A stretch of DNA of 64,000 bases from Ferrimicrobium sp. (lineage in GTDB: Bacteria; Actinomycetota; Acidimicrobiia; Acidimicrobiales; Acidimicrobiaceae): assembly GCF_027319265.1 (NCBI RefSeq), contig NZ_DAHVNP010000049.1:11558-75557 (forward strand). The letters run 5' to 3'. The position numbers and the translations under genes were made by a program. Positions 1,569 through 60,842 of this stretch are shown here, one piece after another; the first letter of the stretch is position 1, and each line of letters begins with the position of its first letter. The notes beneath the pieces were generated by a model, which was not told the DNA's origin, ran no database searches, and worked only from the letters and a program-made list of their open reading frames with translations.

Positions 1569-2954
1569 ATGGACTTCCCAACAAACCTCGGTGACCTGGT
1601 GGACAGTGGCTATAAGCCAAGAACCGTGCGAGAGGAGATCCGAGCGAACGTCTTTGCGAGGCTCCGGGCAAAGGCGCCAGTGATCGATGGATTATTTGGT
1701 TACCAGGACACCGTCCTGCCAGAGCTTGAGCGCGCACTTGTCATCGGACACGACATCATCTTCCTCGGTGAGCGGGGTCAAGGCAAGACCCGGATGATTC
1801 GAACGCTCTACGAACTGCTCGACGAATGGGTACCGGCGGTAGCGGGCTCTGCACTCAACGAGGATCCTCTCCGCCCGATCCTGCCAAGCACGAGAGATCG
1901 CCTCAAAGAAGAGGGGTCCAAAGCTCCGGTGACATGGATCAACAGAGCCGCACGCTTTAGCGAAAAGCTGGCCACCCCTGATACCACGATCGCCGACCTC
2001 ATCGGCGAGGTTGACCCCATCAAAGTCGCAGAAGGGCGGTACCTCGGTGACACCGACACGATTCACTACGGGCTTGTCCCGCGCACCAATCGGGGCATCT
2101 TTGCCATCAACGAGCTTCCCGATCTTCCAGAACGCATTCAAGTCGGCCTGCTGAACGCTCTTGAGGAACGCGACATTCAGATCCGCGGCTACAAGATCGC
2201 CCTCCCCCTTGACATCCTCTTCGTCGCGTCGGCCAACCCGGAGGATTACACGAGCCGTGGGCGATTGATTACCCCCCTGAAGGACCGCTTCGGCACCCAG
2301 ATCACAACGCACTACCCAGAGGTGGTCGAGGACGAGATCGCCATTATGACCAGTGAAGCCAGACTGCCATCCGATCTTGAGATCGTCTCGCCGCTACCGA
2401 TCCTGCTGATCATCGCCACCATGGCACAGCTTGCCAGACACCATTCGAGCATCTCGCAGCATTCAGGGGTCTCAGTTCGTGCATCGATCGCGGCCTATGA
2501 GGCGGTCACCGCAGCCGCACTCGTACGATCGATTCGCAATCAAGAGTCGCCAGCGGCGCTCCGAGTGACCGACCTTGAGGCCGCCCTTCCAGCTTTTGTC
2601 GGGAAGATCGAGGTGGAGTCGCTCGACCCTCGGGAAGGCATCAAAATCGGCGCTGCCCTCCTGCGCCAAGCGATAGGCGCCGTGTTCACCCAATGCTACG
2701 GGAGCCAGGATGCGACTGCATTGGTCGAAGAGGTGAATCGATCACCACTCCAGATCGAAGCTGATCAGTCAGCCACTGCGTACCAGGCCCTACTGGCCAG
2801 CTATCCAGAACTCCTCGCCTTCGTCGGGTCCTCACCGACGAGCGAAGAACTCCCTTGCTATGTCGACCTTGTCCTTGAAGGTCTCGTCGCGATGAGACGG
2901 CTCTCGCGCCACACCTCCATTGACCGCACTACCTTCGGGTCGAGCCGTGCCTAA
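1569..2954 (+). CDS. AAA+ ATPase, BchI/ChlI (Mg-chelatase)-like family
   Basis: 461 aa. Walker A is FLGERGQGKT. Walker B-like is GIFAINELPDL, followed by LLNALEERD and an arginine-finger region. It overlaps the downstream VWA gene. Confidence 0.8.
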   Translation: MDFPTNLGDLVDSGYKPRTVREEIRANVFARLRAKAPVIDGLFGYQDTVLPELERALVIGHDIIFLGERGQGKTRMIRTLYELLDEWVPAVAGSALNEDPLRPILPSTRDRLKEEGSKAPVTWINRAARFSEKLATPDTTIADLIGEVDPIKVAEGRYLGDTDTIHYGLVPRTNRGIFAINELPDLPERIQVGLLNALEERDIQIRGYKIALPLDILFVASANPEDYTSRGRLITPLKDRFGTQITTHYPEVVEDEIAIMTSEARLPSDLEIVSPLPILLIIATMAQLARHHSSISQHSGVSVRASIAAYEAVTAAALVRSIRNQESPAALRVTDLEAALPAFVGKIEVESLDPREGIKIGAALLRQAIGAVFTQCYGSQDATALVEEVNRSPLQIEADQSATAYQALLASYPELLAFVGSSPTSEELPCYVDLVLEGLVAMRRLSRHTSIDRTTFGSSRA

Positions 2955-4899
2955 GCGTTATCGCTATCATGACTATGATCCCGCGCTCGACACGACGACC
3001 CAAGCCGATGAGATTCTGGATGCACTCGCCGACTCACTCACCTACCACGGCAATGTCTCTGAGGCGCTCCGGGAGTTGCTCGCACAGGGTTTTGGAGCGA
3101 CACCGGGACTCGCAGAATTGCTGGAACGACTGCGAAGGCGTCGAGATGAGCTGCTTGCCCATTACGATCCCAACGGTCTCGTTGCGCAACTCAACACCGA
3201 ACTCGATGCCATCATCAGCCAAGAACATACCACGCGTTCCGAGGCGTATGCTGCCACCGGTGACGAACAGCATCTCCTCTCGGGGCTTGAGCTCGATGCG
3301 CTCCCAGCGGGGCTCGGCGATCGCATCCGAGAACTGACCAACTACGAATTCCTTGATGAAAGGGCCAAGGAGCGTTTTGGTGACCTCGTCGAATCGCTCA
3401 GGTCCTCCATCCTGCGCGAACAGGTACAGCAACTGCGAGATGCGCTCACCACTGCCGATCCCGAGATGACGGCACAGATGATGAACGAGTTGGCGGAGCT
3501 GATAGAGCGCTTTCGCAACGGCGACGACGTCGAGGCCGACTTCACCAATTTTAAACAACAATACCCAGGTATAGCCGGTGATGACGAGGGGTTTGAAGAC
3601 TTCTTGGCACGACTGGTGGAATCAGCAAGGTTGACGCAGTCTCTCCTGGGCTCGATGGATGCGGCGACCCGTGCAGAGCTCATGGACCTCATGTCCGCCC
3701 TCTCGGAGTCACCTCAGCTCGGCCAAGCGATGTCACGTCTTGGCTCCGCCCTTGGCTCCTGGACGAATGCCGACGCAGCGGGTTATGGCTTTCACGGGGA
3801 AGTTCCTCTTGGCCTTGGGGAGCTTGAGGAGGTCATGAGCACGCTTGGTCAACTCGACGAGCTCGAAGGTGCCCTGAAACAGGCCTCAAGCCCCGAGCGA
3901 CTCTCTGAACTCGATAGCGCCCAACTTGAGGAGTTACTCGGTTCCGATGCTGCCGACGCCGTCAGTCGCCTCAAACAACTCGCTGACCAACTCAGTGACG
4001 CCGGGTTGATCAACCGCGATGGTGGAAAACTCGAGCTCACCGGCAACGCCATCAACAAGCTCGGCGACATCATCCTCCATCGGCTCTTTCCCGCGGGACA
4101 GGCGCGCCTCCTTGGCAATCATGAGTCACGACGGATCGGCCATCAGGGCACGGATCTGAGCGGCGAGACAAAGCCCTACGAATTTGGAGACCCGTTCCGA
4201 CTCGCGCTACGCGATACCTTGACGAATGCCCTTTCACGGCAGGGTGGCGGAACCCCTCTGCAACTCGCTCCCGAGGACTTCACCGTCGAACTGACGGAGG
4301 AGCGGACACGTGCCGCCACCATGCTAGCGCTCGATCTGTCGCTCTCCATGCCATTGAACGACACCTTTCTCCCCGCCAAACAGGTCGCGCTCGCACTCTC
4401 TAACCTGATCCACTCCCGCTATCCACGGGACTACCTCGGTTATGTCGTCTTTTCCGAGGTGGCACGCGAGGTCGATCTTGCTCACCTGCCTAGCGCACAG
4501 TGGGACTACGTCTACGGCACCAACATCGAGCACGCACTACTCCTGTGCCGTGCACGATTACGACATCAACCAGGGTACCGACAGATCTTGTTGGTGACCG
4601 ATGGAGAGCCAACCGCGCACATCGATCCTGATAGCCATGAGGTGTTCTTCGCATACCCACCTTCACCCGAGACGATCCAACGGACACTCGCTGAGGTCCT
4701 GCGGTGCACTCGAGAGGGGATCACAATCAATCTTTTCATTCTCAACCCAGATACCGGATTACGCAGCTTCGTCAACGATGTCCTAGCCATCAATCATGGA
4801 CAGGCGTTTTACTCCTCAGGGACCACGCTCGGCTCGACGCTCGTGCAGGAGTACGTCGATGACAGAGTGAAACGAGCCAGTCGTCGCCCTTCTGCGTGA
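2920..4899 (+). CDS. von Willebrand factor A (VWA) domain protein with long acidic helical N-terminal region
   Basis: 659 aa. The C-terminal VWA domain has MIDAS DxSxS (ALDLSLSM) and LLVTDGEPTAH. The start is either TTG 2920 or GTG 2947; the latter overlaps the upstream stop as GTGCCTAA. Confidence 0.8.
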   Translation: MTALPSGRAVPKRYRYHDYDPALDTTTQADEILDALADSLTYHGNVSEALRELLAQGFGATPGLAELLERLRRRRDELLAHYDPNGLVAQLNTELDAIISQEHTTRSEAYAATGDEQHLLSGLELDALPAGLGDRIRELTNYEFLDERAKERFGDLVESLRSSILREQVQQLRDALTTADPEMTAQMMNELAELIERFRNGDDVEADFTNFKQQYPGIAGDDEGFEDFLARLVESARLTQSLLGSMDAATRAELMDLMSALSESPQLGQAMSRLGSALGSWTNADAAGYGFHGEVPLGLGELEEVMSTLGQLDELEGALKQASSPERLSELDSAQLEELLGSDAADAVSRLKQLADQLSDAGLINRDGGKLELTGNAINKLGDIILHRLFPAGQARLLGNHESRRIGHQGTDLSGETKPYEFGDPFRLALRDTLTNALSRQGGGTPLQLAPEDFTVELTEERTRAATMLALDLSLSMPLNDTFLPAKQVALALSNLIHSRYPRDYLGYVVFSEVAREVDLAHLPSAQWDYVYGTNIEHALLLCRARLRHQPGYRQILLVTDGEPTAHIDPDSHEVFFAYPPSPETIQRTLAEVLRCTREGITINLFILNPDTGLRSFVNDVLAINHGQAFYSSGTTLGSTLVQEYVDDRVKRASRRPSA

Positions 4900-4986: not shown

Positions 4987-5886
4987 ATGCAGATGATCCT
5001 CACCGAGCCTCCTTCGGGGAAGCAGTATCACCTGGCCTCCGAGGGGTACCACGCCGTCATTGTCGAAGTCGGTGGCGGTATCCGGTTCTTTGAACACCAT
5101 GATCGGCCAGTCCTAGAATCCTATGATGAGAGTGCCATCTGTGACGGTGCTCATGGGGCACATCTCTTGCCATGGCCAAACCGCGTACTCGGTGGAAGGT
5201 ATCGATTCAACGACCAGGAGTACCTGTTACCCTTAACTGAGGTCGAAGCCGGCAACGCGATACATGGTCTCCTACGTTGGCACGCCTTCGACGCCACACG
5301 ACTCACACGGAGTTCTGCAACGTTGCAGACAACCCTGCACCCTGCGCCGTGGTATCCATTCCGTCTCTTCGTCCAATTGCATTACCAACTGTCGACCGAA
5401 GGACTCACGATCACCACCGAGGTGTCCAATCGTAGCTCCGAAGCCGCCCCATTTGCTCTCGGCCATCATCCCTACCTCTCTCCGGGCAGAGACCAGATCA
5501 TCGATCGAGCGATCTTCTCAGCCACAGCCTCAAGCATCGAGAGTCTTGCCAACGATGAAGATGGCTCCACTGCAAATCTTGCGCTACCACGGCCCATTGG
5601 GGGGCGTGTTCTCGACACGACCTTCGCTGTTCACGCAACCGATCGTTCTGCAAGTTGGGCGCGTCTCCAGGGGACTGACGGTCGCACTGTCGAGCTTTGG
5701 GCAGACCAAAGCTATCGCTACCTCCAAGTCTTTACTGGCGATACACTACCGAGTTGGCGCCGTCGTCGAGCACTAGCGGTCGAACCGATGACCGCGCCAC
5801 CCAACGCACTACAGAGCGGCCAGGATCTGCTAATCCTTGAACCGAAAGAGACACGTACAACACAATGGGGAGTTCAACTGCAATGA
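4987..5886 (+). CDS. Aldose 1-epimerase (galactose mutarotase-like) family protein
   Basis: 299 aa with LLPWPNR, AIHGLLRW and ALGHHPYL motifs typical of the mutarotase fold. It lies directly upstream of zwf. Confidence 0.8.
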   Translation: MQMILTEPPSGKQYHLASEGYHAVIVEVGGGIRFFEHHDRPVLESYDESAICDGAHGAHLLPWPNRVLGGRYRFNDQEYLLPLTEVEAGNAIHGLLRWHAFDATRLTRSSATLQTTLHPAPWYPFRLFVQLHYQLSTEGLTITTEVSNRSSEAAPFALGHHPYLSPGRDQIIDRAIFSATASSIESLANDEDGSTANLALPRPIGGRVLDTTFAVHATDRSASWARLQGTDGRTVELWADQSYRYLQVFTGDTLPSWRRRRALAVEPMTAPPNALQSGQDLLILEPKETRTTQWGVQLQ

Positions 5887-7301
5887 CCACGACACCTACA
5901 ACCACAGGCGGACACGACGACGATCAATCGGTGGAGGTCTTCGTCATCTTCGGCATCAGCGGTGACCTCGCCAAGAAGATGACGTTCCCATCGCTCTATC
6001 GCCTCGAAGAGAGCGACAAGCTCACCTGTCCCATCATCGGTGTCGCCATGGACGACTGGACCACCGACGGACTCATCAAACACATGCGAAGCTCGATTGC
6101 CAGCACCATCAAGGATCCTGACACCAAGGTGATCGACCGACTCGCGAACCGACTGCAGTATCTGCGAGGAGACTTCACCTCGGATAGCACCTACCATGCA
6201 CTCGCTCAGCTGATGGGCTCTGCCCAGCGCAAGCTTTATTACCTTGAAATTCCTCCCGTTCTCTTTGCGCCAGTCGTCGAGGCGGTGGCAAAGAATGGGC
6301 TGGCCAAAGATGCCTTTTTCCTGATCGAAAAGCCATTTGGCCATGATCTCGCCTCGGCGAAGGAGCTCAATGACCGCCTGCATGCTGTCATCGATGAGCA
6401 ACAAATCTTGCGGATTGACCATTTCCTTGGCAAACAACCGGTGCTCGACCTGTTCTATTTGCGATTCGCCAACTCGCTACTTGAGCCTCTCTGGAACCGC
6501 GATCACGTCTCTGCCATTCAAGTCAACATGACCGAGGACTTTGGAGTAGAGGATCGGGGTGCCTTCTACGACCCGGTTGGTGCCCTTCGCGATGTGGTCC
6601 AAAACCATCTACTGCAGGTCCTCGCGCTCGTGCTGATGGAGGCCCCGAGCCAGGTGGGTGATCGTGCCCTCTGGGACAAGAAAGCCGACGTCTTTCGCGC
6701 GATGGCGACGGTTGACCCTTCGCAGGTGATTCGTGGTCAGTATCAGGGATATCAGGACGTGCCGGGGGTCCAACCGGGATCAAAGACGGAGACCTTCGTC
6801 GCACTTCGCCTGAGTGTGAACAACTGGCGATGGGAGGGCGTGCCGATCTTTCTCCGCGCCGGCAAAGCGCTCAAAGCCACCGCAACCGAGGTCCGGCTCA
6901 TCTTCCGCCATCCGCCAAAACTCAATTCGCTTGAATTGCCGACCCATGTCGCACCAAACCAGGTCATTCTCAGGATCGATCCTGAACCAGGGTTGCGGAT
7001 GACCCTCTTCTCGAAAGCAGCCGATAGCACCGGTTCTGAGGAGGTCCATCTTGATCTGCCCTTCGCCAAAGAATTGGGACGTGCTCCCGAGCCTTACCAG
7101 TTGCTGATCAGCCATGCACTCGAGGGCAATCATTCACTCTTTACTCGCGAGGATGTCGTCGAAGAGACCTGGAGAATCCTCGATCCACTGGTCCATAGCA
7201 CCACGAAACCGAAGACCTATGCGCGCGGCACATGGGGACCAGACTCCGCAGTTGATGTCGTTCGAGGTCATCTCGCATGGCAGGTTCCTTGGACCGATTG
7301 A
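5883..7301 (+). CDS. zwf: Glucose-6-phosphate 1-dehydrogenase
   Basis: FGISGDLAKK NADP site, RIDHFLGKQ active-site motif and EKPFGHD. I prefer ATG 5883 (ATGA overlap with the upstream stop) over the track start 5865. Confidence 0.92.
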   Translation: MTTTPTTTGGHDDDQSVEVFVIFGISGDLAKKMTFPSLYRLEESDKLTCPIIGVAMDDWTTDGLIKHMRSSIASTIKDPDTKVIDRLANRLQYLRGDFTSDSTYHALAQLMGSAQRKLYYLEIPPVLFAPVVEAVAKNGLAKDAFFLIEKPFGHDLASAKELNDRLHAVIDEQQILRIDHFLGKQPVLDLFYLRFANSLLEPLWNRDHVSAIQVNMTEDFGVEDRGAFYDPVGALRDVVQNHLLQVLALVLMEAPSQVGDRALWDKKADVFRAMATVDPSQVIRGQYQGYQDVPGVQPGSKTETFVALRLSVNNWRWEGVPIFLRAGKALKATATEVRLIFRHPPKLNSLELPTHVAPNQVILRIDPEPGLRMTLFSKAADSTGSEEVHLDLPFAKELGRAPEPYQLLISHALEGNHSLFTREDVVEETWRILDPLVHSTTKPKTYARGTWGPDSAVDVVRGHLAWQVPWTD

Positions 7302-13918: not shown

Positions 13919-15007
13919 ATGCCCGGGTACGACATGCAACCTCATTCGTCGTCCCAACTCCCTACCCGCGCCTCACTACACTCAAAGGTTGTGAGCCACG
14001 CTCGATGGAATCTACTTCGCACCACCGCAATCCTGTGGGGCAGCCTGCTCCTCGCCGCTAGCTTGATCTGGCTTGACTTTGGTACGGTATCTGAGGTCGC
14101 CATCGGCCCAGGGGGTCTCGTCAATCTATCCCAAGCTGTTGGTTTGGATCATCACCATCCCCGTCATCTAGCCCTGTTCGATGCACAGCTTTCCGTCACT
14201 ACGCTCACCCCACTCCAGCTTGTCATCGATCACCTCAATCCCAATCTGGAGTTCATCACTCCCCTGCGCAATCAAAAGACACCCTTAGACGACGCCGCCT
14301 CTAGCAACCTCCAGGCGGTGCTATCCGCTGGAGTCGCGGCCTACCGGTATCTCGGGCTACCGATTACCGACACTCACGGGCTCATCGTCCGCGACATCCT
14401 CCCACATTCTCCAGCTCAGGGCGTCATTCGCCTTGGTGACCTCATCACCGCCGTCAACGGACTGAGGGTCTCGAATCTATTGAACTTTGAGACAGCATTG
14501 ACCTCGAAACCGCATAGTCCGACTGTTACACTTGTGCTCGAACGCCAACAAGTGGGCGCCCCAGCACCCAGGCGCAGCCAAGTGCGGGTGCCCTTTAACG
14601 AAGGGAAGTTGGGGATTGTCATTGCCGCTGGCAGCCTCTACGAGCTCCCAAACGCACTCCGGTTAGAAATCCCTCGGGCGCTCGACGGTAGTGAAGGACT
14701 CGCAGAAGCTCTCGCGATCATCGATAGCGTCCGCCATCTCCACCTCAACTACCCTCTTGCCGTGGGTCTCATTGGCGTCGTCAAACCTGACGGAGCAATA
14801 CAGCCAGTGTTTGGGATCGCACAAAGAGTCGCGGCCATGCGGGCTGGGCATCTACGCTATGTACTTGTGCCATCAGTACAGCGCCAGAGTGCCCAGCGGG
14901 CTTCACACGGAACGATCGACGTGATCGGTGTAACCTTTCTCTCTCAGGCGGTACGAGAGGTTGAGCGGCTCGGAAGGGCAATCACTCCAAAGGAAGTAGT
15001 CCGATAG
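13919..15007 (+). CDS. Membrane-anchored PDZ domain / Lon-like (S16) C-terminal domain protein
   Basis: N-terminal TM helix (ILWGSLLLAASLIWL) and PDZ domain (ILPHSPAQGVIRLGDLITAVNG). The S16-like region has DGSEGLAEALAIID and GIAQRVAAMRAGHLRYVLVP. Confidence 0.75.
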   Translation: MPGYDMQPHSSSQLPTRASLHSKVVSHARWNLLRTTAILWGSLLLAASLIWLDFGTVSEVAIGPGGLVNLSQAVGLDHHHPRHLALFDAQLSVTTLTPLQLVIDHLNPNLEFITPLRNQKTPLDDAASSNLQAVLSAGVAAYRYLGLPITDTHGLIVRDILPHSPAQGVIRLGDLITAVNGLRVSNLLNFETALTSKPHSPTVTLVLERQQVGAPAPRRSQVRVPFNEGKLGIVIAAGSLYELPNALRLEIPRALDGSEGLAEALAIIDSVRHLHLNYPLAVGLIGVVKPDGAIQPVFGIAQRVAAMRAGHLRYVLVPSVQRQSAQRASHGTIDVIGVTFLSQAVREVERLGRAITPKEVVR

Positions 15008-15016
15008 GAGGCGAGA

Positions 15017-17290
15017 ATGTGGCGGCCAGAGACTAACGATACACACGAGAGCTTCAACATCGTCAGAAAAGGTTACGACCGCGAAGCGGTTGATCGTCTG
15101 CTCGCTGCGCTGCGTCAAGAGCTATCGCAAGCCTCAGAGAGAATCGCCAAGTTAGAGGTCGAACTCTCCCAAGCGCGACAGGCTCATGAAACGCTGCGCG
15201 AGGATACGCGTCTCGCGCTCTCCGACCCAGAGCGGGCCAGCAAGTTGCTCGGCCAGGAGGCCTCTGAGGTGCTCAAAAGTGCTAACGATGCCGCACTCGG
15301 ACTCCGACGTAAGGCGGAGTCCACGGCGAAGGATCTCGTGGAACGGGCACGGCGTGAGGCAGAAGAGATTACCAGACAGGCCAAGTTAGCTGCCGAAAGC
15401 GAGATCGAGGAGGGGCGTCAAGTTGCTCGTGCCCATCTCGAGGAGGTACGACAGCAAGGACGTGAGATCCTTGCTATGGCTGACTCCACGGCGGCGAGCA
15501 CGGTAGAGGCGGCAAAGCGCGAGGGGCGTTCCTTGGTATTTCGTGCTCGCGAACATGCGGCCAACTTAACCCAGCAGGCCGAAAACCGTGCTGCTCAGGT
15601 TCGGGAGGAGATCTCTGGTCTCGACCTTGAGCGCCAACACCTGATCGGGATCCTCCGAGGCGCACAGGATCTGGTTCGTTCATCACTCGCTTCGCTCGAC
15701 ACGCGACCGCTCTTCCCTGAACACGCTGCCACCGAGGTCCCCACGGGAGAGAACGAGCACGACACCACGCCAACGAGTGAAGAACCAGGGATCGTTGACG
15801 TCAAGCTTCGTGATCTGCCAACCGCAGAATCCGTTGACGGGGATGCGCTCAACCACGTCACCAAACCAACAGAAAACGCGGATACCACCCCCGTTGAGGC
15901 GGGTGTCGATACCACGCAAGCTGCGTTGACACTCGCTGATGTTACCAAGCTCATCGAGCTCGCTGCCGAGCAGACGGCGGCATTTGAACTCGACGACGAG
16001 GAGGATTACCTGATCGACCGCGTGGTCGATGACCGTGTGATCGAGGAACCTAGCACTCTGCACTCTGACGATCAGGGTACAGAGACAACGGAATCCCCTT
16101 CGAGTGACCTCCGTGAGTCAAAGGACATTCGAGAGTCAAAGAGCAGTGAGGTCGCAGCACAAGAACCCCAAGTCTCTGTACAAGAACCCTCGACGTCCGA
16201 GGACGATCATCCAACTCCGCTTCATGAGATCGGTGAGGCCGATGCCAGCTCCACTGATGCCGCCTTCACCCCGTCGGGTGTGTCCGACACAGGAGCGGGA
16301 CAAGAACCTCCAGAGCTCCATGATGCAACGGAGTTCGAGGATGAAATCATCGTCGTGGAGCGGTATCGTCAACCACGCCCTGAGGCCACGACACCAGACA
16401 ACTCCAAGTCTCGTCTGCAACGTCTCGAGGCACTCTTTAGCGAACTCCGCGAAGAGGACGCTGACCACAGTATGGCCACTTCGCGAACCGTGAGCCAACC
16501 GAGTCCCGTTCCAGCGGCGACGTCTGACGACTCTGACGCCGCAGTGCCGGACGACTCCGTGGTCGACCCCTTACCCGAGAGTGCCCAGAATCTCCATGAC
16601 TCCGAGACCGACCATCTAGCTCAGAAAATTCGAGGTGCGCTCAAGGATCTTTTCGACCCCCGTACGGTTGACCTTTCGCGACGGATAAAGCGAATCACCC
16701 AGGATGATCTCAACAAAATTCTGGCGACGCTTCGTTCCAGCGGGCGCGATAGCGCTATCTCTCTCATCGACCAGATCATCAACGACAGCCAAACGCGAGC
16801 CGGAGATGTGCGCCTACTCGTGGCTCGTATCCTGCATGCCGGATCTGACTTCGGCGCCCTCCTCGGAGACCAGCGCTTCGATCCCTCAGGTCAGCGCTTT
16901 GACGAGCTATCGCAAGAGATGGCGATCGATCTTACCGACGCCCTCGGACAGGCGACCCTGGTGCGCGCGCTTGAAATACTCGAGCGCAGCTCCGAGCTGG
17001 ACGAGATGGAGCTCGTCGCTCGCACGAACGGGGTCTACCGTGAAGCTCGACGCAAGCTTGACGAACTCATCAGCGACAATGCCTATCAGATTTTCTGTCG
17101 TGGTGTTCGCCTCGTTCCGGGGGCAACCGGCTATCTATGGGTCACATCGTCGGCCACGCAACCCTGCGCGGACTGCGAAGACAATATGCTCGCTGGAATC
17201 AATCCCTTAGCTGAAGCGTTCCCTACTGGACATGAGAATCCGCCAGCACACCCCGGCTGCACCTGCGTTATTGTTCCTGTCTTCGCCTAG
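15017..17290 (+). CDS. DivIVA-domain coiled-coil protein with acidic low-complexity linker and C-terminal phage Mu F-like (PF04233-like) Cys/His domain
   Basis: AGGAGG RBS. The N-terminus FNIVRKGYDREAVDRLL is the DivIVA signature, followed by about 200 aa of heptad-rich sequence. The C-terminus LVARTNGVYREA...YLWVTSSATQPCADCEDN...PPAHPGCTCVIVP matches the MuF/SPP1 gp7 motif (D..C..C, then PPxHPxCxC). Confidence 0.75.
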   Translation: MWRPETNDTHESFNIVRKGYDREAVDRLLAALRQELSQASERIAKLEVELSQARQAHETLREDTRLALSDPERASKLLGQEASEVLKSANDAALGLRRKAESTAKDLVERARREAEEITRQAKLAAESEIEEGRQVARAHLEEVRQQGREILAMADSTAASTVEAAKREGRSLVFRAREHAANLTQQAENRAAQVREEISGLDLERQHLIGILRGAQDLVRSSLASLDTRPLFPEHAATEVPTGENEHDTTPTSEEPGIVDVKLRDLPTAESVDGDALNHVTKPTENADTTPVEAGVDTTQAALTLADVTKLIELAAEQTAAFELDDEEDYLIDRVVDDRVIEEPSTLHSDDQGTETTESPSSDLRESKDIRESKSSEVAAQEPQVSVQEPSTSEDDHPTPLHEIGEADASSTDAAFTPSGVSDTGAGQEPPELHDATEFEDEIIVVERYRQPRPEATTPDNSKSRLQRLEALFSELREEDADHSMATSRTVSQPSPVPAATSDDSDAAVPDDSVVDPLPESAQNLHDSETDHLAQKIRGALKDLFDPRTVDLSRRIKRITQDDLNKILATLRSSGRDSAISLIDQIINDSQTRAGDVRLLVARILHAGSDFGALLGDQRFDPSGQRFDELSQEMAIDLTDALGQATLVRALEILERSSELDEMELVARTNGVYREARRKLDELISDNAYQIFCRGVRLVPGATGYLWVTSSATQPCADCEDNMLAGINPLAEAFPTGHENPPAHPGCTCVIVPVFA

Positions 17291-17300
17291 GGTATAGTGG

Positions 17301-20165
17301 ATGCGCGTTCCACAAGATATCACCCGTAACCGACGGGGGCCGTCGCGGGCACAGCTCATTCTGATCGGGGTTGTCGTACTCCTGATTGTCGTTCTGTTTT
17401 CGCTCAAGGGCATTGCTGTCTTCTATACCGACTTCCTCTGGTTTTCGAACTACCATCTCGACGAAATCTGGAAGGGTGTTCTTCTTGCCAAGGTAGAGCT
17501 CTGGATCGTCTTTGCAGCGATCTTCGCCGTCGCTTGTTACGTCTCCTTGACCATTGCAAACCATCATCTCCCAGCGATCACCCCCCAAGACGATGATCTC
17601 ATTCAGCGTTACCGCGCCACGAATGAACAACACCCCAAAATCGCCAAGATCGCCATCACGGTTGTCGCCACGCTCATCGTCGCCTCACAGGCACCAAGCG
17701 AGTGGAAAAACTGGCTACTCTTTCGCAACTACGTACCTTTCCCAACGAAGGACCCGCAGTTCCATCTGAACGCCGGCTTCTTCGTCTTCCGCCTACCCTT
17801 CATCCAGTTCCTCATCTCATGGAGCTTCCTCGCTGTTGCTGTCACCTTCGTCCTCACGATTGCCGTGGCCTATCTCAATGGTTCCCTGCGACTCCAGGGA
17901 CGGGGCACTCGTGCTACCGCCCACCTCAAGGCTCATATGTCGGTCCTACTCGCGGTTATGGCGCTCATCAAGGCCGTTGGCTACTACTTTCAGCGCTACC
18001 AACTTGACATGTCAACACGAGGATACGTCGAGGGGGCAAGCTACACCGATGTCCATGCACAGCTCCCTGCCATCAACCTGCTAATCTTCATCTCCGTTGT
18101 CGCCTGCGGCTTATTTGTCTTCAATATCTACCGACAGGGTTGGGTACTTCCCGTCCTGGCACTCGGGCTATGGGCCTTCATCTCGATTGTGCTCGGCGCC
18201 ATCTATCCCGCCTTGATTGAGAAGTTCGAGGTGGCACCGGCGCAGGAGCAAAAAGAGGCGCCCTACATTGAGCGTAATATCATCGCGACGCGCTATGCAA
18301 TGGGTCTGAACTCGATCTCGGCCGCTCCCTACGAAGCTGCAACCAATACGTCCTCTTCCGTAGCTCTCACCAATGACAACGCGCTTCAGTCAATCATCCT
18401 CTGGGGCTCTACCCAACCATTACAGACCTTCGACAAGCTGCAAGATATCCGGTCCTACTATCAATTCAACTCCTTGTCGATTGAGACCTATAAGGTGCAC
18501 GGGGTCACCACTCCCGTGCTCGTCGGTGTGCGTCAAATCAACTCCAACAACTTGCCCGCTCAATCCTGGGTTAACGAACACCTTCAATTCACCCACGGAT
18601 ACGGTGCCGCTCTCGCTGAAGCCAACACCGTCTCTAACGGAGGTAACCCGATCTTCGACATCGGCAACCTACCCCCTGTCTCCAAGGGTGGGGTGCCGGT
18701 GCTCCAACAGCCCCAGGTCTACTACGGCGAAGATATGAGCGGCTATGTCATCGCCAACACCAAGCAGCCAGAGATCGACTACCAGCTCCGATCGGGTGCC
18801 TCAGTGGAGACGCATTATCATTCAACGGGCGGTGTGCAACTCACGTCGATCATCAAACGAGCCGCCTTCGCGCTGCGCTTTGGCGACATCAACATCTTGG
18901 ACTCCTCTCTTGTTACCCCCCAATCGCGCATTATGTTCGAACGGGGCATCGTTACGCGTGCACAGATGGCCATGCCGTTCCTCAAGTACGGATCCCACCC
19001 GTACCCAGTGATCGCTAACGGACGGGTCTATTGGGTACTCAATGGCTACACTACGAGTCCGAACTACCCGTACGCTCAGGCCGCCAACACCAGCGCCGTC
19101 CCCTCGGGCAGTCAACTCGCCAACGGCAACTACAACTACATCCGGAACTCCGTCAAAGTGGTCATCGATGCCTACTCCGGCTCAATGCACTTCTACGTAT
19201 CCGATCCATCCGACCCAATGATCCAGGCCTACGAGAAGGCTTTCCCTCACGTCTTCCAGCCACTGTCCTCAATGAATCCGGCGATAGAAGAGCATCTCCG
19301 CTACCCAAGCGATCTGTTATCAGTGCAGGCGCAAATGTACGGGCTCTATCACGTCACCAGTGCCTCGAACTTCTACTCAGCGGGTAATGCATGGGAGGTC
19401 TCAGCGAGCCCAGCGATCGGCCAAATCCCTTCAGGAACCAGTGGTGGCTTTGCCTCGCTCTCAAGCACAAGCAACTCCCCGATGTTGCCGGTCTACGAGA
19501 TGATGCAGCTTCCAGGGTCCAAGTCGACCAATCTCAGCCTTGTGGAAGCCTACGTCCCTTACTCCCCATCAGGCTCGACCCAGAACCTCACCGGCTTCTT
19601 GGTCGGCCAATCGTCTCCCTCTAATCCCTATCAACTCACCACGCTGATCACGCCGAACGGCGAGCAGATTGATGGTCCCAACCAGATCACCTCTCGCATG
19701 ACATCACAGACAGCGGTATCACAGGAACTCACCCTTCTCGATCAACACGGATCCAACGTTGACTTCGGATCGACCTCTGCCATACCGCTTGGACAAAATC
19801 TCCTTTGGGTCACGCCTCTCTACGTCTCAAGTACCTCCAACCCAATTCCTGAAATCAAAGAGATCGTCGCCGCCTACGGAACCAACATCGCCATCAGCCC
19901 AACGGTCGCTGGCGACCTTCAGCAGATCTTTGGGGTAATTCCAAATGGGGCCGAAGGAAGTCAAAAGGCCGCAACCTCCGTTCCGAGCACGGTTGTCTCA
20001 TCACAGGCCTCGAGTATCATCGCGAAAGCCCAGGCTCTTTATACCAAGGCACAGGCTGCACTCAAGTCCGGGAACCTCTCGCAGTACCAGCAGGACATCA
20101 ACCAAATTGGCGCGCTGCTCAACGAGATTTCTACCAAGGTTAAGGCTTCCACGGCTAAGAAGTAG
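17301..20165 (+). CDS. UPF0182 family large membrane protein
   Basis: 954 aa. About 7 N-terminal TM helices with YTDFLWF, then a large extracytoplasmic region with PQVYYGE and NYIRNSVKVVIDAYSG. The size and layout are typical of actinobacterial UPF0182. Confidence 0.85.
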   Translation: MRVPQDITRNRRGPSRAQLILIGVVVLLIVVLFSLKGIAVFYTDFLWFSNYHLDEIWKGVLLAKVELWIVFAAIFAVACYVSLTIANHHLPAITPQDDDLIQRYRATNEQHPKIAKIAITVVATLIVASQAPSEWKNWLLFRNYVPFPTKDPQFHLNAGFFVFRLPFIQFLISWSFLAVAVTFVLTIAVAYLNGSLRLQGRGTRATAHLKAHMSVLLAVMALIKAVGYYFQRYQLDMSTRGYVEGASYTDVHAQLPAINLLIFISVVACGLFVFNIYRQGWVLPVLALGLWAFISIVLGAIYPALIEKFEVAPAQEQKEAPYIERNIIATRYAMGLNSISAAPYEAATNTSSSVALTNDNALQSIILWGSTQPLQTFDKLQDIRSYYQFNSLSIETYKVHGVTTPVLVGVRQINSNNLPAQSWVNEHLQFTHGYGAALAEANTVSNGGNPIFDIGNLPPVSKGGVPVLQQPQVYYGEDMSGYVIANTKQPEIDYQLRSGASVETHYHSTGGVQLTSIIKRAAFALRFGDINILDSSLVTPQSRIMFERGIVTRAQMAMPFLKYGSHPYPVIANGRVYWVLNGYTTSPNYPYAQAANTSAVPSGSQLANGNYNYIRNSVKVVIDAYSGSMHFYVSDPSDPMIQAYEKAFPHVFQPLSSMNPAIEEHLRYPSDLLSVQAQMYGLYHVTSASNFYSAGNAWEVSASPAIGQIPSGTSGGFASLSSTSNSPMLPVYEMMQLPGSKSTNLSLVEAYVPYSPSGSTQNLTGFLVGQSSPSNPYQLTTLITPNGEQIDGPNQITSRMTSQTAVSQELTLLDQHGSNVDFGSTSAIPLGQNLLWVTPLYVSSTSNPIPEIKEIVAAYGTNIAISPTVAGDLQQIFGVIPNGAEGSQKAATSVPSTVVSSQASSIIAKAQALYTKAQAALKSGNLSQYQQDINQIGALLNEISTKVKASTAKK

Positions 20166-20195: not shown

Positions 20196-20320
<125 letters not shown>

Positions 20321-22418: not shown

Positions 22419-23709
22419 ATGTCTACGGTTCTGAAGCGGCGCTGGAGGAGCGATGTCGGCGGCACCGGGCTACCTCGCAAGGACAGTCGGTCATGCGAAT
22501 ACGAGGCGTATGTCCCAGATCATCTCATGGGAAGGCGGTTTTTCCTAGAGGGTGAAGTCGCTGCCGATGTTGCAGATGCCGAGGCGGCGATCGTTCGTCT
22601 GAACATCGAAGCGAACGCTCGTGTTGACACTGAGGCGCTCGCTCGAATCCTCCTTCGTGCCGAAGCCGTGGCCTCATCACGGATTGAAGGACTGGAGGTC
22701 GGAGCACGACGTCTGCTCCATGCCGAGGTCGTTCGAGGAATGCACCAGGCGGCAGCCGACGTCACGGCAGCCGAGGTCCTCAATAACATCGACGCCATGG
22801 TATTTGCGGTCGAGAGCATCGATGCCGGGGATCCCATCACCGTGGACATCCTCCTCGACATGCACCGTCGTCTCCTTGCTGGCACACGACTTGAACAGTA
22901 CGGAGGTATCGCCAGAGACCAACAAAACTGGATTGGTGGAAGCGCCAACAACCCCTGCGCTGCCGTCTTCGTCCCCCCCTCCCCCTGAATTCGTCAACGA
23001 ACTTCTTAAAGACCTGTGCGCCTTCTGCTACACGGACGATCTCCCACCTGTTGCGCAAGCTGCCATCGCGCATGCCCAGTTTGAGACGATCCACCCGTTC
23101 GTGGACGGAAACGGAAGAACAGGTCGAGCCCTGATCCATCTCATCCTTCGACGTCGGGGACTCGCTCTCCGAACGCTTCCTCCCGTGTCCCTGGTGCTCG
23201 CTACGTGGGCGAGGGATTACATCGACGGGTTGACCCTGTTCCGCTACGTCGGATCACCAACGTCCCCTGCCGCCATCGACGGGCTCAACACGTGGATTGG
23301 GCGCTTCGCAAGTGCTTGCACGAGGTCCGTCGCTGACGCCAGCACGTACGAACGACGAGCGGCTGAGCTAGAAGTGGAGTGGCGTGAACGACTGGGATCT
23401 GTCCGTGCCAACTCCGGAACGGACGTTCTCCTCCGGGTACTTCCCGGTGCGCCAATCCTGACTGCGGACAGTGCCGCAACGCTCCTCGGACGTACCTACA
23501 AACCAGCAGCGGCAGCGATCCAACGTCTCGTCGATGCCGGGATTCTCCGACAGGTGAACATCGGGCGGCGCAACAAGGCATTCGAGGCGCCAGAGGTCAT
23601 CGCCGCCTTCACTGCACTGGAGCGCCAGCTCGCTAGTCCCGAGGGCGACACTCGCACGAGTGAGCCCGTGCGTACTGTGCCTCGACACAGGGGGATCGCA
23701 GTAACATGA
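22419..23709 (+). pseudogene. Fic family (AMPylase-type) protein, disrupted by a 1-nt frameshift in a C7 run at 22973-22979
   Basis: Frame 0 ends ...[20 protein letters not shown]. Frame +1 continues [14 protein letters not shown]...[22 protein letters not shown] (Fic motif HPFxDGNGRxGR) plus a C-terminal wHTH. Removing one C restores VFVPPPPEFV. Confidence 0.8.
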
Positions 23710-60664: not shown

Positions 60665-60769
60665 TCATTATCCAATCATTCGAAGAAATCTGTTGCGTCG
60701 AACCGCAACGCCGGCACCGGTGACCCATCCTCGTTGGTCAGATCATTCAATGACCGGCCCCTGACGCAG

Positions 60770-60842
60770 AGCCCGAGAGGGGATTCGAACCCCTGACCTG
60801 CTCATTACGAGTGAGCTGCTCTACCGACTGAGCTACCCGGGC
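60770..60842 (-). tRNA. tRNA-Thr (anticodon CGT)
   Basis: The reverse complement is GCCCGGGTAGCTCAGTCGGTAGAGCAGCTCACTCGTAATGAGCAGGTCAGGGGTTCGAATCCCCTCTCGGGC. It forms a cloverleaf with GTTCGAATC in the T-loop. CCA is not encoded. Confidence 0.9.

Follow-up and report, generated by a model that had tools for sequence, protein, structure and literature searches.

The stretch of DNA considered here, referred to as the window, comprises 64,000 nt of contig NZ_DAHVNP010000049.1 from Ferrimicrobium sp., an acid-mine actinobacterium placed in the class Acidimicrobiia of the phylum Actinomycetota. Its subject of interest is a gene for a single protein in which a DivIVA-type N-terminal domain and probable coiled coil, a long acidic linker, and a C-terminal domain with the likeness of the MuF (SPP1 gp7) head proteins of tailed phages follow one another. 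This fusion gene is flanked by genes for two membrane proteins, one with PDZ and Lon-like regions (PDZ-Lon) and the other belonging to the UPF0182 family. An earlier reading made from the sequence alone (the sequence-only reading) had described a 757-aa open reading frame (ORF) lying 9 nt after the former and 10 nt before the latter, and both the ORF list and the translation agree with it exactly (Table 1). The 9-nt junction, with its GGAGG, suggests co-transcription and translational coupling of the fusion gene with the PDZ-Lon gene. GC content is even across the region, and the protein as a whole carries a net charge of roughly -67. A near-identical entry exists at NCBI, in the form of a 757-aa "hypothetical protein" from a Ferrimicrobium sp. 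metagenome-assembled genome (MAG), with 99 % identity over the full length.

Table 1. Features of the fusion locus, followed by other features of the window (AF2, AlphaFold2; TM, transmembrane)
Feature	Position	Strand	Description	Basis
PDZ + Lon_C-like (S16) membrane-anchored protein	13919..15007	+	362 aa, one N-terminal TM segment (residues 32-50)	
Intergenic junction PDZ-Lon/fusion	15008..15016	+	9 nt, GGAGG ribosome-binding site; reads TAG-GGAGGCGAGA-ATG	
DivIVA-linker-MuF fusion gene	15017..17290	+	757 aa, ATG start, without TM segment, acidic throughout	ORF list, translation, TM prediction
DivIVA/GpsB-type N-terminal domain and long helical, probably coiled-coil region	15047..15706	+	Residues ~11-65 (domain) and to ~230 (helical region)	PF05103, family profile
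Acidic linker	15707..16576	+	Residues ~231-520; poorly conserved, length-variable, disordered	Composition, alignment, AF2
Conserved short helical motif in linker	16412..16459	+	RLQRLEALFSELREED in the query	Column counts, AF2
MuF-like domain (SPP1 gp7 / Phage_Mu_F superfamily)	16577..17287	+	Residues ~521-757, ~235 aa	AF2, Foldseek, HHalign, PHROG, tblastn
Probable metal-binding module	17138..17266	+	W708...CxxC(EDN)...FPTG...P-x-H745-x2-C748-x-C750	Invariant/near-invariant columns, PF04233 positions 66-111, phage MuFs
UPF0182 family membrane protein	17301..20165	+	954 aa, ~7-8 N-terminal TM helices, large extracytoplasmic domain	PF03699, E 7e-238
tRNA-Met (CAT)	20196-20272	+	30 nt past the UPF0182 stop; ends the three-gene block	
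ORF with Fic/DOC domain	22621-23709	+	362 aa, ~2.5 kb downstream of the operon	PF02661, E 1e-18
ORF following an AAA_5/MoxR-like ATPase ORF (1569-2954)	2920-4899	+	659 aa, without Pfam match at E<=1e-5	
tRNA-Thr (CGT)	60769-60842	-	Second tRNA in the window	

Conserved modules of the fusion protein

When aligned with relatives whose identity falls as low as ~23 %, the protein resolves into three conserved modules set apart by unconserved sequence. The first of these had been recognized from its DivIVA motif, and it passed the profile comparison proposed as a check on that motif, since PF05103 is matched at 29.8 bits against a cutoff of 28 (Pfam, residues 11-122). The DivIVA family is likewise matched by all 70 of 70 full-length relatives, with a best E of 6.6e-17. 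Searched against PDB sequences, the family profile finds the N-domain of Bacillus subtilis DivIVA (2WUJ, E 1.1e-9), Wag31 (6LFA, 8.6e-7) and GpsB (4UG3, 4e-6), as well as 2WUK and 7O39. A single-sequence phmmer search of the PDB with the N-terminus returned no DivIVA match, so the family profile is needed for this result. The Wag31 model of NCBIfam aligns over residues 15-196, consistent with a long coiled coil, and matches of the N-terminal region to long helices of the ATP synthase b/E and FliH types were weak only.

As in DivIVA, Wag31 and GpsB, an N-domain of ~55 residues bearing the signature F-x3-(R/F)-(R/K)-G-(Y/F)-D-x2-(E/A)-V is followed by what is probably a long coiled coil, and within the DivIVA part F13 and G19 are conserved. 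However, the pair of a hydrophobic and a basic residue that inserts into the membrane in B. subtilis (F17/R18) is not reproduced. The query has R17-K18. Of the 70 relatives, 57 have R and 11 have F at position 17, and all 70 have R or K at position 18, such that the basic residue is kept and the hydrophobic one usually lost. That feature aside, the N-domain makes the fusion a member of the DivIVA family. Compared with a canonical DivIVA protein, the fusion usually has Arg in place of Phe17 and is three times longer, adding an acidic linker of 135-334 aa and a presumably phage-derived C-terminal globular domain, and its gene sits with those for UPF0182 and PDZ-Lon rather than in a division cluster of the dcw/ylm type.

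The acidic, disordered stretch of about 300 aa described in the sequence-only reading is well supported. Residues 231-545 have an isoelectric point (pI) of 4.1 and a net charge of -54, with 76 Asp or Glu and 87 Ser, Thr or Pro among 315 residues, and across the family the linker has a median pI of 4.05. The alignment shows no conservation within it except for one motif, which has the family consensus V-D-x-L-F-A-R-L-R-A and reads RLEALFSELR at residues ~470-479 of the query. Its columns in the 70 relatives hold F in 69, L in 57, A in 63, R or K in 62, L or I in 66, and R or K in 69. AlphaFold models the motif as a helix with a predicted local distance difference test (pLDDT) score of ~85, and places ~40 residues with scores of 46-56 between it and the folded domain. 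On this model, the pattern would suit a docking helix. Many of the short proteins called from metagenomes start right at the LFARLR motif (e.g. P0024, P0070 and P0077).

The C-terminal fold begins at about residue 521 and is modelled by AF2, with a pLDDT of 93.4 and a predicted template modelling score (pTM) of 0.88, as a helical bundle followed by a small terminal beta/Cys-His module. The string ARTNGVYREA...W.T....PCADCEDN...PPAHPGCTCVIVP, in which the likeness to phage proteins was originally seen, is present in the translation. Thirteen positions of the domain are invariant in the 70 relatives, whose mean identity is only ~23 %, namely K558, D563, R675, E676, W708, D719, D722, N723, L725, P736, T737, C748 and C750, and four more (F735, G738, P743 and H745) are shared by no fewer than 90 % of them; judged by these columns, the conservation of the C-terminal motif far exceeds chance. 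The first Cys pair is more variable, occurring as CxxC in 73 sequences, CxxA in 66 and SxxC in 19, and an additional Cys after FPTG is found in 39 of 65 CxxA forms versus 13 of 71 CxxC forms. Such compensation of the first pair by the Cys after FPTG is how a structural metal site would behave, and the Cys/His module probably binds metal. The domain is also acidic, with a pI of 4.8 and a net charge of -9 in the query and a median pI of 4.9 over the 70 relatives, versus a pI of 9.1 for the MuF protein of phage phiCD119.

Kinship of the C-terminal domain with phage head proteins

The sequence-only reading had assigned the C-terminus to the phage Mu F/SPP1 gp7 family and proposed that it be scored against PF04233, a check that the query fails. 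When Pfam was searched with the full protein, the C-terminal 196 aa and the C-terminal 110 aa, the full protein gave no PF04233 match at E<=1, and the last 110 aa reached only 13 bits (HMMER, E 0.18), below the cutoff of 29.6. Among the relatives, E falls under 0.01 in just 5 of 70, the best value being 1.5e-4. This outcome was not taken as a refutation, because independent weak matches all converged on head proteins. Thus, the C-terminus matches Pfam VG15 at E 1e-3, and its weak single-sequence matches in PHROG belong to the category "head and packaging" only. In a tblastn search of 50,697 phage genomes, the annotated matches were all minor head, head-morphogenesis or portal genes, and the minor head proteins of C. 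difficile phages (phiCD119) align to 98 % of the domain.

Homology to MuF is carried by profile-profile and fold evidence, and not by direct scoring against PF04233. A Foldseek comparison of the AF2 model with BFVD, in which the targets are themselves predicted models, gave 36 matches at E<1e-3 (best E 1.4e-6, TMq up to 0.82) over ~250 aligned columns, i.e. the whole domain. Of the named matches, nearly all belong to the head-morphogenesis, minor capsid or MuF-like groups, two bear the label capsid maturation protease, and those at the top include MuF-toxin fusions with zeta-toxin or ADP-ribosyltransferase domains. Against the PDB, the best Foldseek match had an E of 0.27 (designed helical bundles), there being no solved MuF structure in the copy searched, and phmmer with the C-terminus against PDB sequences yielded only spurious matches to chlorophyll-binding proteins.

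Among profile comparisons, the one with the family of phiCD119 gp05 scored 86 % in HHalign (P 5e-6) over the terminal 49 columns. The reference protein itself matches PF04233 at 61.9 bits, and its gene lies just after a portal gene. Close relatives of gp05 (P0169-P0178 and P0190-P0214) carry a C-terminal Ntox50 (PF15542) or ADP-ribosyl exotoxin (PF03496) domain, which is the architecture of MuF polymorphic toxins. The second comparison involves an IMG/VR phage contig, L113, on which a terminase gene and a gene in portal position are followed by one for a 263-aa protein (5371-6159) ending "PCPECEDN...FPSGDDSPPAHPNCAC". This protein passes PF04233 at 36.1 bits, above the cutoff, and aligns with the family profile at 98.2 % and E 4.9e-14 over 89 columns, helical parts included. 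The gene in portal position on L113 (3725-5374, + strand, 549 aa) has no Pfam match at E<=0.1 and, standing between a T4-type large terminase gene and the PF04233 MuF gene, probably encodes a divergent portal. Within IMG/VR, only two viral contigs were matched, over the last ~45 residues only. Finally, 19 of 22 relatives match phrog_2662 ("portal protein") at the C-terminal end of that profile (positions ~650-709 of 717), with a best E of 3.1e-15, and 5 of the 22 match a head-morphogenesis PHROG at 2.2e-9. A 'capsid head morphogenesis protein' of Enterococcus phage 9181 was tried as a further reference and dropped, as it falls below PF04233 and has few relatives.

Based on these sequence and model comparisons, the C-terminal domain is best placed in the MuF superfamily as a divergent representative, nearest to MuF1 and beyond the reach of the current Pfam model. 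The original assignment accordingly holds as a statement of homology, given the whole-domain fold match, the HHalign alignment at 98.2 % and the PHROG matches. The Cys/His module is the part most clearly common to phage MuF1 (PPxHPxCxC). Like phage MuF/SPP1 gp7, the fusion has the predicted fold over ~235 residues and the terminal module W...C..C...PP-x-H-P-x-C-x-C. However, it scores below the Pfam threshold, and its domain is acidic, encoded on the chromosome, by all appearances vertically inherited, and placed behind a DivIVA scaffold. The portal-adjacent position in the head module, a hallmark of phage MuF genes (Jamet et al. 2017), is also not found here, the neighbours being PDZ-Lon and UPF0182 in the window and at 81 related loci too. 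With MuF polymorphic toxins (PMC5576092) and polyvalent proteins (PMC5512222), the fusion has in common the use of MuF as a modular attachment domain joined to others. In MuF toxins, though, an N-terminal MuF domain is combined with a C-terminal toxin and a small immunity ORF in a phage or prophage, whereas the fusion has its MuF-like domain at the C-terminus, a scaffold as its partner, and none of the other elements.

Operon context and spread of the family

The UPF0182 gene lies directly downstream of the fusion gene in 81 of 81 loci, with a median gap of ~36 nt, and the PDZ-Lon gene lies directly upstream in 46 of the 57 loci that could be assessed. This deep synteny supports the proposal, made from the window alone, of a three-gene envelope module. 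DivIVA and MuF are encoded in one ORF in 61 of the 70 loci whose 5' end falls inside the locus and are split in the other nine (L033, L057, L062, L078, L084, L085, L100, L105 and L107). Several of the split loci come from 'MFD' MAGs, which we take to be long-read assemblies, and the splits are likely due to frameshift errors, a true split form or an internal start being the less likely alternatives.

The upstream protein is identified by matches to Pfam PDZ_2/PDZ and by weak matches to NCBIfam models of the LonB/SepM type. Pfam Lon_C (PF05362) is on record for its orthologues at loci L001 and L002 but was not detected in the window copy. Where the two orthologues read 'GGPSAGLAF' and 'GG..QKV', the window protein has 'DGSEGLAE' (residues ~255-263) and 'FGIAQRVAAM' (residues ~298-307), the latter with Lys changed to Arg. 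To judge from these residues, its Ser-Lys dyad seems degenerate, and the protein may have become a pseudo-protease in the Ferrimicrobium lineage.

As to the downstream gene, the window (17301-17360) and 82 related loci (L001, L002 and L033-L112) were sampled for the N-terminal tail of UPF0182. This tail is cytoplasmic and Arg-rich, of the form MR.P.(S/D)DLPRR.RR, has a median length of 19 aa with six Arg or Lys, and lies just before the first TM helix, outside the Pfam model. The acidic fusion protein may have a docking site here. Both neighbours are anchored in the membrane, have mostly extracytoplasmic bulk and expose short basic tails to the cytoplasm. The UPF0182 homologue of the operon has the same arrangement of seven TM helices and a large extracytoplasmic domain as that of the UPF0182 module already described (MSMEG1959/Rv3193c/cgp_0896). 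The partners named in the available portion of a preprint on that module are YccA, MSMEG4237 and FtsH, with no DivIVA-like or MuF-like protein among those named there (bioRxiv 10.1101/2025.11.14.688347). Compared with the module so described, the operon of Acidimicrobiia adds a dedicated cytoplasmic component.

Elsewhere in the window, the flanks are of a housekeeping kind, encoding tRNA synthetases, glucose-6-phosphate dehydrogenase, acyl-CoA dehydrogenase, subunits of the NADH-dehydrogenase type and a cation diffusion facilitator (CDF) transporter. They hold no portal, terminase, capsid, integrase, toxin, immunity or mobile genes, no par or dcw genes occur near the fusion gene, and none of the three operon proteins matches a PADLOC-DB family at E<=0.01. 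The earlier remark that no other phage genes are nearby is in keeping with all of this. At loci L001 (838-4473) and L002 (422-5459), the block is preceded by genes for an HtrA-like trypsin-PDZ protease, MoaE, a small ORF, MreB and a HEAT-repeat protein. That set is absent upstream in the window, where a CysS-like ligase, an acyl-CoA dehydrogenase and a DCC1-like protein are encoded instead.

A hidden Markov model (HMM) of the C-terminal domain matches 3897 representative clusters (50 % identity representatives) at E<1e-3, 1577 at E<1e-10 and 956 at E<1e-30, and among the best 150 of the 3897 the domain is always C-terminal. Searches of GTDB species genomes with two peptide patterns yielded at least 419 confirmed loci. 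The best 80 of these carry the labels Acidimicrobiales, Microthrixaceae, Ilumatobacteraceae, Iamiaceae, Acidimicrobiia or generic Actinomycetota. Two loci (L046 and L072) have the operon typical of Acidimicrobiia in MAGs labelled 'Acidobacteria bacterium ATN2' and 'uncultured Bifidobacterium sp.', and these records are probably mislabelled or mis-binned rather than true cases from outside the class.

The DivIVA-MuF fusion is thus a class-wide family of Acidimicrobiia, and the idea of an odd insertion confined to one genome falls, while the claim that the architecture is undescribed stands. The source annotations read "DivIVA domain-containing protein", "cell division septum initiation protein DivIVA" (JGI) or "hypothetical protein", with only PF05103 precomputed; the family is accordingly common and annotated, but under labels that convey no known function. 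In the literature, no description was found of DivIVA combined with MuF or with UPF0182, of PF04233/Phage_Mu_F outside phage, prophage or toxin contexts, or of DivIVA paralogues of Acidimicrobiia, and the fusion appears to be the first recognized cellular exaptation of a MuF domain. A fixed chromosomal position, together with divergence across the orders and families of the class, points to long vertical inheritance. Since MuF is widespread in tailed phages and the cellular family is seen in one class only, parsimony suggests that the transfer ran from phage to cell.

Possible function and competing explanations

The explanation favoured here, with a confidence slightly above even and by analogy with known systems, is that the fusion acts in the cytoplasm as an adaptor of the DivIVA type, using its exapted MuF domain to dock onto the membrane machinery encoded in the same operon, i.e. 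UPF0182 and/or PDZ-Lon. The N-domains of GpsB and DivIVA bind basic cytoplasmic tails of membrane proteins. In the proposed scheme, the DivIVA/GpsB-like N-domain and coiled coil would form oligomers that sit at the membrane, whether at DivIVA-marked sites, on the basic cytoplasmic tails of membrane proteins, or both. The acidic linker would be a flexible spacer bearing one conserved helical docking motif (LFARLR). The MuF domain would have been captured from a phage head protein by an ancestor of the class and retained for a cellular job. It, and possibly the LFARLR helix, would dock onto UPF0182 and/or PDZ-Lon, much as MuF attaches to the portal ring, and this docking would position or regulate an envelope/proteolysis module. 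We infer the physical docking, its partner and the localization of the fusion from these likenesses.

Several published observations bear on this scheme. SPP1 gp7 binds the portal oligomer (PMC5576092), and MuF domains are virion-anchoring modules for other domains (PMC5512222). UPF0182, for its part, is predicted to form a tetrameric dome, and it has been linked by phenotype to FtsH/YccA in three distant actinobacteria, with a role in membrane-protein quality control being suggested (bioRxiv 10.1101/2025.11.14.688347). A more specific version of the adaptor model is rather doubtful, though still worth stating: it would make the fusion the first recognized cellular exaptation of MuF/gp7, with the adaptor clamping an oligomeric UPF0182 and, through it, possibly FtsH/PDZ-Lon, thereby positioning or gating this machine at sites of growth or division.

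A number of points weigh against the adaptor model. The change of Phe17 to Arg in the query and in 57 of 70 relatives means that the classical, curvature-dependent membrane binding of DivIVA cannot be taken for granted. The positive-inside rule may by itself account for the Arg-rich tail of UPF0182. The PDZ-Lon protein of the window appears to be without its catalytic Lys, and PDZ-Lon is not adjacent in ~20 % of loci; for these two reasons, the link to the protease is weaker than that to UPF0182. The invariant or nearly invariant polar residues R555, K558, R559, D563, N566, R675, E676, D719, D722, N723 and H745 would also suit an enzymatic role, and the biochemical function of MuF itself is not established in the literature, widespread as the domain is in tailed phages (PMC5576092). 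Lastly, it is from the best 80 of at least 419 genome matches that the family is judged to be restricted to Acidimicrobiia.

The strongest of the competing explanations, albeit an unlikely one, is that the MuF-like domain works as a metal-dependent enzyme or effector, which the DivIVA part only delivers to a site at the membrane and whose substrates may be the neighbouring proteins. The nearly invariant His/Cys cluster and the charged positions just listed, other than H745, would be consistent with such an activity, and the 'C..CEDN' signature is common to the family and the MuF protein of phage contig L113, whose kind has no established biochemistry (PMC5576092). However, there is no enzyme fold among the Foldseek matches in the PDB, where nothing falls below E 0.27, and no enzyme among the Pfam matches. 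The variable and compensated first Cys pair is typical of a structural metal site, and published accounts regard MuF as a structural module bound to the portal, with enzymatic activities residing in separate domains that it carries (PMC5576092, PMC5512222).

Somewhat less probable again is that the protein is a DivIVA paralogue engaged in chromosome or nucleoid anchoring or in division, that its MuF-like domain binds DNA, and that its link to UPF0182 amounts to a shared promoter only. DivIVA proteins tether chromosome-segregation factors in other bacteria, and relatives of the fusion are annotated by JGI as 'cell division septum initiation protein DivIVA'. In addition, an entry in the reference list of PMC5576092 describes SPP1 gp7 as binding DNA and being targeted to the procapsid. 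Yet the acidity of both the domain, so unlike the basic phiCD119 protein, and the fusion as a whole is unfavourable for non-specific DNA binding, the very short gaps and unbroken linkage to UPF0182 argue for a functional association, and the neighbourhood lacks par and dcw genes.

Much further down the scale, with only a slim chance of being correct, is the idea that the C-terminal likeness to MuF arose by convergence, through a generic Cys/His knuckle attached to an unrelated helical bundle. It draws on the subthreshold PF04233 score, on the mere 49 columns of one HHalign comparison, and on the lack of a solved MuF structure by which to anchor the fold. Against it stand the Foldseek matches over the whole domain, whose named members are nearly all head-morphogenesis or minor capsid proteins, the alignment with the L113 protein, which takes in the helical parts, the portal-family and head-morphogenesis PHROG matches of the relatives, and the near-complete span of the phiCD119 minor head protein. 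That the gene is left over from a prophage, encodes a MuF-type polymorphic toxin or serves in anti-phage defence, as might be supposed from MuF having otherwise been reported only in phages, prophages and MuF-toxin systems (PMC5576092, PMC5512222) and from the MuF-toxin fusions among the top fold matches, is effectively refuted by the housekeeping flanks with their uniform GC and want of phage, toxin or immunity genes, the empty PADLOC result, the reversed domain order without any toxin domain (Pfam, PADLOC), a downstream gene for a 954-aa UPF0182 protein in place of a small immunity ORF, the fixed position and class-wide divergence indicative of vertical inheritance, and the scarcity of viral matches.

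The MuF/gp7 proteins are among the commonest of the phage head module and have been discussed only in the contexts of phages, prophages and toxin delivery. A vertically inherited, class-wide copy mounted on a cytoskeletal scaffold would indicate that the MuF fold can work outside the capsid, in a setting that is tractable for finding its binding partner. UPF0182, on the other hand, is conserved throughout Actinomycetota, and a dedicated cytoplasmic partner in one class offers a direct hypothesis for how it is positioned or regulated. For annotation, ~1000 protein clusters are at present under-described as "DivIVA domain", which an HMM of the C-terminal family would remedy. If a MuF adaptor does clamp UPF0182, the fusion of Acidimicrobiia would provide a handle both on what the MuF fold binds and on how UPF0182 is controlled from the cytoplasm.

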